From positions 40,069 to 104,068 of the forward strand of contig CASEVI010000002.1 in assembly GCA_949291375.1 (NCBI GenBank): a DNA stretch of 64,000 bases. Direction: 5' to 3'. Shown here piece by piece: positions 43,147-61,035 of this stretch; the stretch's first letter is position 1, and each line of letters opens with the position of its first letter. The stretch is from an uncultured bacterium (GTDB lineage: Bacteria; Bacillota_I; Bacilli_A; RFN20; CAG-826). The translations under genes and the position numbers were made by a program. Below the pieces are notes generated by a model that was not told where the DNA came from, did no database searches, and saw only the letters and a program-made list of their open reading frames with translations.

Positions 43147-46100
43147 ATGAAAAAGAAAAATTTATTAGCCTTATCTGCTTTAGTCCTTTCTTTAGGTTTA
43201 ACAGTTTCTTCATGTGCTGGAGCTCAAGGAGAAAAAGGTGATACTGGAGACAAAGGTGATACAGGCGAAACAGGTCCTCAAGGTCCTCAAGGTCAAGCTG
43301 GTCAAGATGGTAAATCATTTGTTGATATTATCGTTAGAGATTGGAATGTCACTGGTGGAGAAATTAATCAAGACAAATATTTCGTCGAAATGGGTAAAAA
43401 AGAATCTGTTACTTTTACATTTACACCAGATAGTGAAGGTGCAGAAGTCGTTGTTAATATCGAAATTAATGGCGAAGTCGTCAATCCAGTATTAGAACTC
43501 GTTCCAGGTGAAGATGGAAAAGTTACATGGTCATATGAAGTTCCAGATAATATGGGTGGTCTTCAATTAACAGCTGCTACATTTACAACTGTTGATGACT
43601 ATGCTTTAGACCAACTTTATGTTTATTATTCAACATTAAGTGCTAATGATAACCAATTAGCTGCTTTTGAAAATGAAGACGGAACATGGACTGCTGATGC
43701 TGACCAAGTCAAAGGTGAATGGTTCAACAGTGATGTTGTTAAAACAGTTACAAGTGAAGCAGGTAAAATTGCTACTGAAGTTGCTAAATTAACAACTGCA
43801 GAAAATCCAAATCCAACAGCTACAGAAAAATTAGCAAAAGTTAATGAACTTTTACCAACTGCTGAAGAAGCTGTTAAAGCTGCTTATGATAAAGCTGTTA
43901 CAGAAGTTAAAGAAGCTGCTATTGAAGCTATCGAAGACTTATCAGATGAAGTTTCATCTGATAACTATAAAGATGCTGATAGAAAAGCAATCTTAGATGA
44001 AGGTAAAGCCGCTATTAATGCTGCTACTTCAATTGAAGATGTTACAACTCTTGTTAACAAAGTCGAAGTTGAAGATAAATTAGAATTAGGAACATATAAT
44101 GAATTATATTCAAGAAAAAATGCTGCTTTCGATAAAATCGAACAAGCTTTAGAAGATGCATATGAGTTAGTTCCTGAATTAGAAGATACTGAAGATCCAG
44201 ATTATGAAGAATTAAAAACTGCTTTATCAACCTGGAAGATTGATTTAGATACAGTTACTCCAAAAGCAACTGCTGATGAATACTTAACAAAAGTTAGTGC
44301 TGCTAAATCATTAGAAGAAATCCCAGTATACACTGAAGATAGTGCAACTGATGCAGAAGTCTCTTATAAAAAAGGTGATGTTGTTTTAGCTGTTGAAGGT
44401 GCTGATGCTGTTGCAGGAAGTGTTGAAGACTTAAAAGATACATTAGTCGCTAATATCCGTGCTTCTTATGAAAAAGAAGTTGATGATTCTAAAGCAATTT
44501 CAACAAGTTCAGCAAAAGAATCATTAAAAGGTGTTATCAACAATAGTATCGATACTTGGTTAACAGTTAATGAAGACAGTTCATTACTCCTTTATACCGA
44601 ATCAACATTAGCTTACGAAGATGAAGACAAGAAAGTAGTTACTGTTGCAGGTAGTGGTTTAGTTGGTTATATCGAAAATGTCATTGGTACAAAAGGAAAT
44701 GCTAACTATAACGCTGCTTTCCAAGCAGAAAGATTACAAAATGCTTTAGCTGGTGCTAAAACTGAATTAGCAGCTGCTATTAAAGCTGTCAAAGATGCTG
44801 ATAGTGATTATTCAAAAGCAATCTCATATTCAAAAGTTACTTCTGGCGACCACAAAGATAAATATTTAGTTAACAATCCAAAAATTGGTGTTAAAGATTA
44901 CGAAATCGCTAACCCATTTGTCAGCGAAGCAAATGAAGCAACAGATAAGAAATTCTATGCTGATACATTAACAAAAGGCACAGATGTTGGTGGAGTTACA
45001 GGAAATGAAACATATTCTGTTGATGATTACTACACCTCTTTATTCCCAGCAGATGGTTCATTACCAGCTGAATTAGAAGGTGCTGCAGATCAAGCAAATC
45101 CAGTCTTAGTTGTTAAAGAATTTATTGCTGATCAAAAAGAAAATATCAAAAATATTTATACAGATGCTGTTGAATTCTATATGGGTAAACAACAAGATGA
45201 ATTAAAACTCACAGAAGGCAAAACAGAAGATGATATTTTATTAACAGAATGGAATAAATTATTCTCTGATCCAATGAAAGCTGATGAAACATATACAATG
45301 TCAGATGTTTCTTCTGCTAGAAAAGGAATGGAAACAGCTAAAACATTATTATTTGATGCAACAGATGGATTATATACTAATGTTGAAGCATTATTAGATG
45401 CTAAAGCTGCTGAAGGCCAAGATGCTGATTGGGTTAATCAAGTCTATGTTAGAAGCGATGAAACAGGCGCAACATCAATTTCTGATTTAAGAAAACAATA
45501 TGAAACATTAAAAGAAAATGTTATCTTAGGAAAAGCTGATGAAAGTGATGTTGAAGACTTTGTTAAAGACTTAACAGACTTATATGAAGCTGATGTAGCT
45601 TCATATAAAGAAGATGCTGTCGCTAAATTAAGAGAAGATGTCCAAAATAGAAAATCTTCTTCAGATGGTAAATTAAGCGTTGCTCAAGTTAAATTAATGG
45701 AAAATAGATTAACTGAAGCAGAAGCTATTTTAGGAACAGATAAAGTTACTTCAGCTGGTACAACATATAAAGGCGATACAGTTACAAGTATTAATGACTG
45801 GTTCGCTGATGCTGAAACTTATGTAATTCCTGATAATGATGGCGAATTCTCACCATCAGGTGATTTAGGACAAAGCGCTACTGAAGAATGGTTTGATTTA
45901 CTTTCTAGAAGAGCAGCTCAATTAAGAGCTGTTGGTTCAGAAGTTTTAAAAGCTGGCCATGATACAAATGGTGTTATCCAAAAATTAGTTGGAGGAACTG
46001 GTTCAGGCGATTCATATAAAGCTGAAGGTTTTGGATATTGGAATACTATTCCTGCTGAATCAGAAAAAGTTACACTTACAATTGGTTTCAGAGATGAATT

Positions 46101-46746
46101 AGTATATAACTATCCAGGATTAATCGAAACATTAGGATTAAAAGGTGAATTAAATGATGAAAAACATTTAGTTTATGAAATCGATAGTGTTGCTGATGTA
46201 AATACATGGTATGAAGATGCTTCTAAAGTTCTTAACTTTGCTATTTCAACAAATAATGAAATTTGGAATCTAGCTAAAGATTATAGAGATGCATTCACTG
46301 CTCAACTTGATAGTCTTGTTGGTAAAACATTTGCAAAAGATGCAACAGCTGATAACGTAAAAACTCAATTAAATACTCAAATTGGTGCTATGTTCGCTGC
46401 ATTTGGTAAAACTAATGTAACTGATTTCATTGATAGTGTTAACTTTAAAACTGACACAAAAACAGTTGAATCAATCACTATCAAAGATGACTATTTAACA
46501 ACAGGCGGAATTATTAAATTAGGTAATTTCACTGCTATGAGTTATGACTTCAATAATGCTGAAAGCGATTATGCTGACGACAATGATGACCTCATTCATA
46601 TCTTAACCGTTTGTACTGGTAAACATAGTGATAGTACACTTAAGACTTATGATTTAACAACTTCATCAGGTCGTAGTGCATTATTAACTGCTGTTAAAGC
46701 TGAAATTGCAAAAGTTACAGGTACAACAACTTCTGGAAATAACTAA
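43147..46746 (+). CDS. Large surface lipoprotein P1 with a collagen-like N-terminus, member of the four-gene family (1199 aa)
   Basis: MKKKNLLALSALVLSLGLTVSSC has the lipobox LTVSSC. This is followed by (G-X-Y)10 (AQGEKGDTGDKGDTGETGPQGPQGQAGQDG), an Ig-like domain with the TFTFTP motif, and a long A/E/K/D/T-rich body. Confidence 0.85.
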   Translation: MKKKNLLALSALVLSLGLTVSSCAGAQGEKGDTGDKGDTGETGPQGPQGQAGQDGKSFVDIIVRDWNVTGGEINQDKYFVEMGKKESVTFTFTPDSEGAEVVVNIEINGEVVNPVLELVPGEDGKVTWSYEVPDNMGGLQLTAATFTTVDDYALDQLYVYYSTLSANDNQLAAFENEDGTWTADADQVKGEWFNSDVVKTVTSEAGKIATEVAKLTTAENPNPTATEKLAKVNELLPTAEEAVKAAYDKAVTEVKEAAIEAIEDLSDEVSSDNYKDADRKAILDEGKAAINAATSIEDVTTLVNKVEVEDKLELGTYNELYSRKNAAFDKIEQALEDAYELVPELEDTEDPDYEELKTALSTWKIDLDTVTPKATADEYLTKVSAAKSLEEIPVYTEDSATDAEVSYKKGDVVLAVEGADAVAGSVEDLKDTLVANIRASYEKEVDDSKAISTSSAKESLKGVINNSIDTWLTVNEDSSLLLYTESTLAYEDEDKKVVTVAGSGLVGYIENVIGTKGNANYNAAFQAERLQNALAGAKTELAAAIKAVKDADSDYSKAISYSKVTSGDHKDKYLVNNPKIGVKDYEIANPFVSEANEATDKKFYADTLTKGTDVGGVTGNETYSVDDYYTSLFPADGSLPAELEGAADQANPVLVVKEFIADQKENIKNIYTDAVEFYMGKQQDELKLTEGKTEDDILLTEWNKLFSDPMKADETYTMSDVSSARKGMETAKTLLFDATDGLYTNVEALLDAKAAEGQDADWVNQVYVRSDETGATSISDLRKQYETLKENVILGKADESDVEDFVKDLTDLYEADVASYKEDAVAKLREDVQNRKSSSDGKLSVAQVKLMENRLTEAEAILGTDKVTSAGTTYKGDTVTSINDWFADAETYVIPDNDGEFSPSGDLGQSATEEWFDLLSRRAAQLRAVGSEVLKAGHDTNGVIQKLVGGTGSGDSYKAEGFGYWNTIPAESEKVTLTIGFRDELVYNYPGLIETLGLKGELNDEKHLVYEIDSVADVNTWYEDASKVLNFAISTNNEIWNLAKDYRDAFTAQLDSLVGKTFAKDATADNVKTQLNTQIGAMFAAFGKTNVTDFIDSVNFKTDTKTVESITIKDDYLTTGGIIKLGNFTAMSYDFNNAESDYADDNDDLIHILTVCTGKHSDSTLKTYDLTTSSGRSALLTAVKAEIAKVTGTTTSGNN

Positions 46747-46786
46747 TTAAATTATCTATTAACTGAATATATAATTTAATCTATTT

Positions 46787-46816
46787 GATTAGGAGAGGGA
46801 ATTTCCTCTCCTAATC
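46787..46816 (+). terminator. Terminator of P1
   Basis: 12-bp stem GATTAGGAGAGG/CCTCTCCTAATC with loop GAATTT, then TTATTATC. The same stem occurs after P2. Confidence 0.6.
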
Positions 46817-46885
46817 TTATTATCAATAACAAAGTAATTTTATGATAAGATGATTTTGTTATTAATAATAGGAGGATATAACATA

Positions 46886-46987
46886 ATGGAAATAAAAATA
46901 GTGCAGGAAAAGCTTGTTGAAGATGAAGCAAGAAAAAATTATTTTTTTTGGAAGTTATTTTATCCGATTGTCCTAGCGAAAAATTGA
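46886..46987 (+). other. Short upstream ORF (33 aa) with a strong SD and ATG, ending just after a T8 tract; probable true N-terminus of the downstream gene separated by a frameshift
   Basis: AGGAGG lies 8 nt before ATG (46886). The ORF MEIKIVQEKLVEDEARKNYFFWKL... runs through the T8 tract at 46942-46949. The downstream ORF is in the -1 frame and starts at a TTG with no SD. Confidence 0.5.
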
Positions 46988-47319
46988 AGAAAATTTATGA
47001 AGAAAAAAAGATAATTGTTTCTAATACTATTTTAGATGGTGCTAGTCGACCTATTCTTTATAATACACATATTTATGGAAACACAGTAAGAACAGCTTCT
47101 TTTTATTTAAGTAAAGATAATGAAGCTCAAAGAAGTTGTCAAATTTCTAAAGATTATTTAAAACAACTTTATAAAAAAATAGAAGCGACAATTGATAAAA
47201 CTAATAAACAGTTTGAATATGAACTAAAAATAGAAAACGAAGAAAAATTAAGAAAAGAAAAAGAAGATTTAAAAAGAAGTGAATTTTTAAAGGATTTCAT
47301 AAAAGATATCAAAGACTAA
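46948..47319 (+). CDS. Hypothetical protein (123 aa from a TTG start), probably translated as a fusion with the upstream ATG-initiated ORF after a -1 slip or T8-to-T9 change
   Basis: Track ORF MEVILSDCPSEK... begins at a TTG inside the T-run and has no RBS. Adding one T would give MEIKIVQEKLVEDEARKNYFFLEVILSD.... Confidence 0.5.
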   Translation: MEVILSDCPSEKLKKIYEEKKIIVSNTILDGASRPILYNTHIYGNTVRTASFYLSKDNEAQRSCQISKDYLKQLYKKIEATIDKTNKQFEYELKIENEEKLRKEKEDLKRSEFLKDFIKDIKD

Positions 47320-47399
47320 AAATAATGAGATTTTATACTTTTTAATGAAAAGAACTTACTTAATTTCTTTTTGGGTGATAATCGGATAATGTAATTAAC

Positions 47400-48767
47400 A
47401 TGTTTATTGAAATAAAAGATACAAAAATGAGATTTGAAACAGATTATTTTGCAGATTATTTTAATAATGGCAAGATGGTAGATGTTTCAAATCCTTTATT
47501 TTTTGAAGCCTATAATGTTGAATTCGGTTCATGTGCTTCAATATCTAATAAAAATAGTTTTACATTGATGGATGCTGGAACAAAAGTTAGTATTACTGAT
47601 CCTAAAATACAAAACACTTTAAATTTTGTTGTTAATAAAATAAATAACTATAAGCATTTTGATTTTGTTTTAACACATTTCCATAAAGATCATTATTCTT
47701 TAATAAGTGATATCTTAAATTCTTCAAGAAGTTATTTAAGATATCTTTTTATATATAATCCTTTTCATAAAAAGATTATTTTCGAACTGTCTTTAATAAA
47801 CTTATTAATGTGTGTTATTGATAAAAGAGAAAATGTTAGAGATGAAGCAAAATATTTAATATTAAGATTTTTTGCTGATAATTATTTTAAAAAATTAGTA
47901 AATCAAAAGAAAATACAGAAAGTATATTTTGTTAAAGAAAAATGTAAATTCTATTTAAATGAAAGGGTATTTTATACTTTAGATAACATTAGTGATGATT
48001 TAAATTTATTTAAAAATCACCAATTTAAAGGCGATGATATTTTTAATGATTTTTATAGTTTCTTAAATAAATATTTCGCTATTCCTTTAGTTGAAAAAAT
48101 TAAAGAATTGCGCGATGAATATGAATATATAAATATTTATTATAAAGACGATAAAATAAAAACAGATTCCGATTTAATAGAAACAATAAGTGAAGATACT
48201 TTTGAAGAAAAAGACAAGATGGATTTCTTTTTTAACGACAAAATAGATGAAATAATTGATTTATTTGATTCAAGTAAAGATAATTCTTTTTTAAATGAGA
48301 AAATTATTAATTCTGAATTCTATAAAAAATATATAAAAGAACTTAGAAAGATTAGAAGATTCATAAATGAACATGAGCTAAACTTAACTTTTGTTGATGT
48401 CTATGACCATATTTTAGTTGGTGGAGATTGTTCGTACAAAAATTTAAAATACGGATTAATCAAAAGATATGGATATAATAATATTGATTTTATTTTAATA
48501 AATGCTCCTCATCATGGTACAAAAGGCTATTTTCCTTTTGAACTAGGAAATATTACTTCTAATTATGTTGTAGGTTCTAATGGCCGAGGATTTAAAAGAT
48601 ACGGGAAATTTTCTTTAAATGAATATTCACGTATTTCTAATACATTTTTACTAACAAACTCCCGATTTGAAAATGAACCCATTACAAATTTTAATATTAA
48701 AAACCTTCATAATATTAAAATTTATACATACGATAACGAACCAGTAACTGATGCTATTATGTTTTAA
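47400..48767 (+). CDS. Metallo-beta-lactamase-fold protein (455 aa), cytoplasmic
   Basis: MBL motif II LTHFHKDHY and a downstream NAPHHGTKGY motif, the HHG signature of ComEC/Rec2-type MBL domains. No signal peptide. Confidence 0.6.
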   Translation: MFIEIKDTKMRFETDYFADYFNNGKMVDVSNPLFFEAYNVEFGSCASISNKNSFTLMDAGTKVSITDPKIQNTLNFVVNKINNYKHFDFVLTHFHKDHYSLISDILNSSRSYLRYLFIYNPFHKKIIFELSLINLLMCVIDKRENVRDEAKYLILRFFADNYFKKLVNQKKIQKVYFVKEKCKFYLNERVFYTLDNISDDLNLFKNHQFKGDDIFNDFYSFLNKYFAIPLVEKIKELRDEYEYINIYYKDDKIKTDSDLIETISEDTFEEKDKMDFFFNDKIDEIIDLFDSSKDNSFLNEKIINSEFYKKYIKELRKIRRFINEHELNLTFVDVYDHILVGGDCSYKNLKYGLIKRYGYNNIDFILINAPHHGTKGYFPFELGNITSNYVVGSNGRGFKRYGKFSLNEYSRISNTFLLTNSRFENEPITNFNIKNLHNIKIYTYDNEPVTDAIMF

Positions 48768-48928
48768 ATAAAAATATTTAAAACATTAAAAAGTTAATTA
48801 TAATAATAAAAGAATAAAAGCTAACTTGTGATGGATAAAACTGGGTTCTTTTATAAGAGTAGATATATTTAATAAATATATTTAGAATTCCTTTGCTCCT
48901 CGGGTTAGCTTTTATTCTTATTAATGTT

Positions 48929-49312
48929 TTAAACTAATGAATATATATTATATTTAACTTTATTCATATTCATTTTAGCTATATCATTAGCTTCTTTTAT
49001 AATTAATTCTTTATCATATTTTGATAAAGAATTATCTAATGATAAATATTCATAATTATTTATTAATTTATCATTTATTATATTTACTTTATTATCTTTT
49101 GATAATGAAATAACTAAAAAACGGTATTTATTTTTAAAACCTACTTTAAAACCTAAATCAATTAATAATAAGTTCTTATTATTTATATCATTATCAAAAG
49201 ATAGCATATTAAATGATTTTAATATGCTATTAACTAATGTTTCATAGTTTAATAAAGTAATAATTCCTAAAAATTTAGGGGTGTTTGATAAGTTAAATAA
49301 AAAATCTTTCAT
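48929..49312 (-). CDS. Hypothetical protein (127 aa)
   Basis: ORF only; no recognisable motifs. Confidence 0.35.
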   Translation of the reverse strand: MKDFLFNLSNTPKFLGIITLLNYETLVNSILKSFNMLSFDNDINNKNLLLIDLGFKVGFKNKYRFLVISLSKDNKVNIINDKLINNYEYLSLDNSLSKYDKELIIKEANDIAKMNMNKVKYNIYSLV

Positions 49313-49389
49313 AATTTACTTATTTATCTATTATACAAAGTCTTCCTATTAAAAATAACTTATATTTATAAAGTTAGCTTTAATAGAAA

Positions 49390-49418
49390 GATTAGGAGAG
49401 GATGCTCCTCTCCTAATC
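49390..49418 (-). terminator. Terminator of P2, with the same stem as the P1 terminator
   Basis: GATTAGGAGAGG-ATGCT-CCTCTCCTAATC, followed by a U-rich run on the minus-strand RNA. Confidence 0.55.
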
Positions 49419-49522
49419 AAATTTATTAACTTACTATCATATAAAGGGATAGATAAATTTCAAACTTATGATAGTAATATTAATTACTGAATAAATAGAT
49501 TTAATTAATTTTTTAACTTAAA

Positions 49523-61035: not shown

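Follow-up and report, generated by a model that had tools for sequence, protein, structure and literature searches.

Does a short collagen-like sequence set next to the lipid-bearing cysteine of a bacterial lipoprotein act as a triple-helical stalk or as a simple spacer, and how does a cluster of genes encoding such proteins diversify? The window analysed here, a 64,000-nucleotide stretch of DNA from an uncultured bacterium, contains four open reading frames that the first-pass annotation had located correctly: P1 (43147..46746, + strand, 1199 aa), P2 (49523..52648, - strand, 1041 aa), P3 (53911..57348, - strand, 1145 aa) and P4 (58120..61035, + strand, 971 aa); with a summed length of 13,080 nt, the four genes take up 20% of the window, rather than the 25% or so first estimated. 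All four proteins begin with MKKKNLL(A/S)L(S/G)ALVLSLGLTVSSCAG, as had been noticed, and share one layout consisting of a lipoprotein signal peptide, a collagen-like run, a β domain of ~90 aa, ~700 helical residues and an alternative C-terminal module. Their overall pairwise identity is 29-32%, ranging from 55-79% in the collagen-like run and 38-70% in the β domain to 22-28% in the body; the islands Y.DADRT..., F.AERL and LY.ADVA.YLE...QVYQN described previously are common to all four (alignment A1). P1-P4, all of them predicted lipoproteins, are genuine paralogues of one another. The reading that we favour, with a probability of about 0.6, is that they are trimeric, collagen-stalked, recombining surface fibrils belonging to an uncharacterised family of large acidic lipoproteins.

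The signal peptide covers residues 1-23 of P1 (43147..43215, + strand) and the equivalent stretches of P2 (52580-52648, - strand), P3 (57280-57348, - strand) and P4 (58120-58188, + strand). It reads MKKKN-LLALSALVLSLGLT-VSS/C (the slash marking the predicted cleavage site), with a positively charged n-region followed by a hydrophobic h-region and a lipobox recognised by the pattern [LVI][ASTVI][GAS]C; no exception to Cys23 occurs in alignments A2 and A6 or in any listed family member. As judged from the lipobox, the precursors would be exported, then lipidated and cleaved at Cys23 by the standard Lgt/LspA pathway; neither an lgt nor an lspA gene lies within the window.

A single Ala separates this Cys from the first Gly-X-Y triplet in P1-P4. 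The collagen-like segment that follows, delimited by alignment and triplet counting, corresponds to residues 25-57 of P1 (43219..43317, + strand) and to positions 52478..52576 (- strand), 57178..57276 (- strand) and 58192..58290 (+ strand) for P2, P3 and P4, respectively. It is uninterrupted, as first described, and its length, then given as 10-11 triplets, is exactly 11 in all four proteins, with Gly at 11/11 triplet positions in each. Lipobox and run are conserved together in 55/55 of the family members first fetched, and a check of orthologues for loss of the run found it present in all homologues; among 24 distinct 11-triplet variants, none lacks Gly at any of the 11 positions, whereas X and Y vary. 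Chance is thus ruled out as the cause of the pattern. The Pfam Collagen model (PF01391) scores P1-P4 at 23.7-25.4 bits (E ~1e-5 to 4e-5; 23.7 bits for P1), under its gathering threshold of 27.2, because the run offers only 33 residues for the 60 positions of the model; among the longer relatives, P0040, P0041 and others carry the PF01391 annotation. These sub-threshold scores, together with the shortness and low proline content of the run, would also suit a flexible or polyproline-II-like spacer lifting a monomeric lipoprotein off the membrane with no triple helix being formed, as would the AF2 monomer models, which confidently fold the remaining protein without partners; in these models the run itself is unstructured. 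A loose spacer, however, needs no Gly at every third residue, and here the Gly pattern is held while X and Y drift, no family member contains an interruption, the length is constant in each clade, and unrelated lipoproteins repeat the same strict pattern. We regard the spacer as rather unlikely, and the run would instead form a collagen-type triple helix.

The DNA encoding the run holds the tandem repeats reported in the first-pass annotation, with 9- and 18-bp units present in 2-3 copies, such as an 18-bp repeat of 2.8 copies inside the P2 segment. The accompanying suggestion that slippage of 9-bp units alters the length of the run is rejected, since close relatives keep the same triplet number: in the window's own clade, all listed members but three have 11 triplets and those three have 10, and other clades have fixed lengths differing from that of the window's clade.

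The combination of lipid anchor and collagen stalk is also present at the head of many unrelated lipoproteins from related organisms known through metagenomes, and no description of it was found in the literature; it had been called unusual, which holds in the sense that the literature found does not describe it, and fails in the sense that it is not peculiar to the P1-P4 family. It is conceivable, although we lean somewhat towards doubt, that low-GC Bacilli of one uncultured lineage employ a short collagen triple helix, set directly on the lipidated Cys, as a general stalk, a natural “peptide-amphiphile” making a whole class of surface lipoproteins obligate trimers; three lipid anchors would then register and stabilise the helix, and the four-gene family would be a recombining fibril set mounted on this stalk. 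In animals, short collagen stalks trimerise and project the recognition heads of ficolins, collectins, C1q, SR-A, MARCO and ectodysplasin, and the N-terminal end of type II membrane collagens sits in the membrane. The working principle is the same by analogy only, with no homology, and the animal stalks are hydroxylated and, where P1-P4 would have a lipid anchor, use a transmembrane helix or disulfide knots. From the work of Fields, Tirrell and co-workers, a lipid tail is said to increase the helix stability of collagen peptides. In synthetic collagen peptide-amphiphiles, an N-terminal lipid directly precedes a ~13-triplet collagen peptide that forms a triple helix and inserts itself into lipid bilayers (PMC3505660); by comparison with P1-P4, these molecules are man-made, rich in hydroxyproline and devoid of protein cargo.

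In P2, the run is directly followed by an N-terminal β domain (residues 58-145; 52214..52477, - strand), delineated from AF2 strands and hhalign, and an equivalent domain stands at the same place in P1, P3 and P4. When compared by hhalign with the post-collagen domain of the other lipoproteins, the P2 domain aligns at 96.8% probability (E 3e-10), and two of those lipoproteins score 19.8 and 23.5 bits with Pfam Flg_new_2 (PF18998; cutoff 23.6). The domain of the family itself has no direct PF18998 match in Pfam, its top match being Big_2 (E 0.001), and a BFVD “Bacterial repeat domain” protein is retrieved by Foldseek at a probability of 1.0 but with an E-value of 0.33. The domain had been named Ig-like; it is indeed a conserved β domain, probably better described as divergent InlB-B-repeat-like, and it is common to other lipoproteins.

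In the AF2 model of P2, the strands at 58-145 are succeeded by long helices from ~147 to 870 and by a β domain at 879-1040; the models have pLDDT values of 79 and 76 (75.6 for P1), and a Foldseek search of the PDB and BFVD with the P2 model returned no match at E < 0.001. A C-terminal β domain common to P2, P3 and P4 had been proposed on account of their Y.FD.S ending; the ending is shared, and the homology of P3 is limited to this terminal motif, its C-terminus being 22-26% identical to those of P2 and P4 across the last 200 aa. As also proposed, P1 ends differently, in an alternative module type with a T/S-rich tail that is found again in P0027, P0030, P0031, P0035, P0037, P0038 and P0061. 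P0024 and P0028, two relatives of P3, join a P3-like N-terminal domain and body to a different C-terminal module, and P4 has the orthologues P0018-P0022, while in P0017 the C-terminal module is swapped. These types were assigned from specific pairwise results; a single-linkage clustering based on the C-terminal 220 residues was discarded, as it merged the types because this stretch still includes conserved helical sequence.

Outside the collagen triplets, sequence searches of Pfam, NCBIfam and the PDB returned no family matching P1-P4 and no source names them, so that they are not members of an already characterised family. About 70 cluster representatives are present in a set of 1.84 billion proteins, all of them metagenomic and without names (P3 is identical to P0026), and a literature search on collagen-like lipoproteins in Mollicutes, RF39 and Acholeplasma found nothing relevant. 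Members of the family are restricted to one narrow lineage of uncultured low-GC Bacilli, and the family has been neither named nor studied.

Recombination is apparent at several scales. Of the 37 differences from the 99.4%-identical loci L010/L011 of a near-identical strain, 15 fall within 76 bp (0.43 expected), in a gene-conversion tract of P1 (43195..43270, + strand) that covers the last part of the signal peptide and triplets 1-5 and whose replacement strings match P2, P3 and P4. Gene order and orientation at the locus vary among related genomes, and modules are shuffled between paralogues in pairwise comparisons. The variation part of the earlier idea of a surface-variation or adhesin family is substantially supported by these three observations; the proteins would be surface-exposed and may act as adhesins. 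Judging from such comparisons, relatives of the strain keep reshuffling the family by recombination.

A 300-nt 5′ cassette of P1 (43036..43335), comprising the promoter region, 5′UTR, signal peptide and collagen-like segment, forms with positions 52460-52759 at P2 an inverted repeat that is 86% complementary; the 5′ ends of P3 and P4 (57155-57349 and 58119-58313) form an inverted pair at 81% (repeats I1, I3, I4 and I5). The upstream edge of this 5′ block common to the paralogues is a 26-bp imperfect palindrome, TGTTCTAATTTTTAAGAAWTAGAACA, located upstream of P2 (52743..52768, - strand), P3 (57522..57547, - strand) and P4 (57994..58019, + strand), with a degenerate copy upstream of P1 (43029..43051, + strand). 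On the 3′ side, a terminator-like hairpin follows P1 (46787..46816, + strand), and its stem sequence recurs in the hairpin following P2 at 49390-49418 (repeat I18). Rfam has no matches in the whole window; the 5′UTR hairpins therefore belong to no known RNA family.

The inverted 5′ ends invite the proposal that the locus is a programmed DNA-inversion system for phase or antigenic variation, in which the palindrome would be the recombinase site and inversions of the 5′ cassettes would switch the pairing of bodies and promoters. The palindrome has a 12-2-12 layout, occurs at three sites and a degenerate fourth where 0.01 matches are expected by chance, is always found at the upstream end of the shared cassette and is conserved in L001, L003 and L006; related genomes vary in orientation, and the end of one contig coincides exactly with the palindrome. 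However, a domain search of the neighbouring ORFs disclosed no recombinase gene in or beside the locus, and neither a regulator nor a recombinase was found adjoining the P1-P4 genes. None of the genes lacks a complete upstream region of its own, the palindrome keeps a constant orientation relative to each gene, its TGnTCTAAT string could be an extended -10 element (a promoter/operator fits equally well), and the observed differences lie between genomes, not inside one population. Programmed inversion is, in our estimation, improbable. For the recombining fibrils that we favour, diversity would come from module exchange and from the conserved 5′ cassettes recombining with one another, the likely outcome being a surface coat or set of adhesins that varies; as each gene has a separate upstream region, several forms may be expressed.

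Candidate defence genes (AbiL, SoFic, PDC-S45, PDC-S01 and McrB-like) lie in between the P1-P4 genes, and L008 has DUF2971, DUF4062 and RnlA-toxin-domain genes as neighbours. P1-P4 could on these grounds be part of the surrounding anti-phage defence island, acting in receptor masking or superinfection exclusion or being domesticated phage fibre proteins, and phage fibres often contain collagen repeats (P0044 and P0045, for example). The genes nevertheless encode a lipoprotein signal peptide and not a virion protein, all the related genomes examined have a family member in the same slot, as would suit a core but variable part of the surface, and the module architecture is common to ordinary BspA-type surface proteins. 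No phage genes adjoin the locus and a phage structure library gave no significant match, so that a phage origin is rejected; membership in the defence system as a whole is very improbable.

Among known systems, Scl1/Scl2 (NF038330, NF038329) and the Legionella Lcl likewise use a surface-located, uninterrupted, charge-rich and hydroxyproline-free Gly-X-Y sequence to present a variable domain, and the Scl1/Scl2 models are the only NCBIfam matches to P1-P4, through the triplets only and at 19-30 bits against cutoffs of 325-500. Whereas Scl proteins possess many more triplets, a trimerising V domain at the N-terminus and a C-terminal LPXTG anchor, P1-P4 have an N-terminal lipid anchor and place only 11 triplets first in the mature chain; no C-terminal LPXTG or hydrophobic tail was found in them, the sole LP.TG string being internal (P4 residue 64). 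BclA-type proteins of the Bacillus and Clostridioides exosporium attach by their N-terminus and come as paralogous families with a collagen stalk and a distal C-terminal β tip, a layout like that of P1-P4. The attachment of P1-P4 is, by contrast, not exosporial, and ~800 residues of helical rod separate stalk from tip; BclA gave neither a sequence nor a Foldseek match to the family. The three-helix-bundle rod adhesins (Ebh/Embp FIVAR-GA, CbpA/PspC R domains, BibA and the GBS beta antigen) are 7-15% identical to P1-P4, which amounts to no sequence similarity. These adhesins of Gram-positive cocci are wall-anchored or choline-bound and lack collagen, unlike the lipid-anchored P1-P4, in which Pfam detected no FIVAR/GA repeat signature of the Ebh/Embp type.

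In the Mollicute Vsp, Vlp, Vsa and Vpma families, the paralogues sit in clusters; their lipoprotein signal peptides and 5′ regions are almost the same, their ectodomains are divergent, and the diversity comes from recombination or gene conversion. VlhA is a variable surface lipoprotein family of this clustered, recombining type (PMC11845793). P1-P4 are likewise clustered paralogues whose 5′ regions and signal peptides are conserved while the ectodomains have diverged. The Mollicute proteins, however, consist mostly of tandem repeats, and their switching depends on a site-specific recombinase next to the genes, on promoter tracts or on pseudogene conversion, whereas P1-P4, besides the separate upstream regions and recombinase-free neighbourhood already described, contain no long tandem repeats, the short units being restricted to the collagen part, and are far larger, fully folded by prediction and equipped with a collagen run.

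In the trimeric fibril that we propose, the 33 residues beginning two positions past the lipid-bearing Cys would form the short triple helix, which would make the mature protein a homotrimer with three lipid anchors in the membrane; given the rise per residue known for collagen helices, such a stalk would measure ~9 nm. Above it would sit a collar of three B-repeat-like β domains, continued by a long rod of three-helix bundles resembling Gram-positive fibrillar adhesins, with the exchangeable C-terminal β module at the far tip as the likely ligand-contacting part.

Should the run prove to be a mere spacer, the locus would be a routine, though unannotated, variable lipoprotein family. If it is a true triple helix, P1-P4 would be naturally lipidated collagen trimers, minimal, hydroxyproline-free and membrane-registered, of interest for collagen biophysics and for protein display engineering, and would represent a new structural class among the lipoproteins that dominate the surfaces of Mollicute-like bacteria; a general stalk of this kind would be a previously undescribed mode of bacterial surface-protein display. 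Taken together, the 5′ cassettes, the conversion tract, the swapped tips and the position in a defence island suggest selection by hosts or phages, and the family offers a tractable case for surface diversification in uncultured gut-type bacteria.

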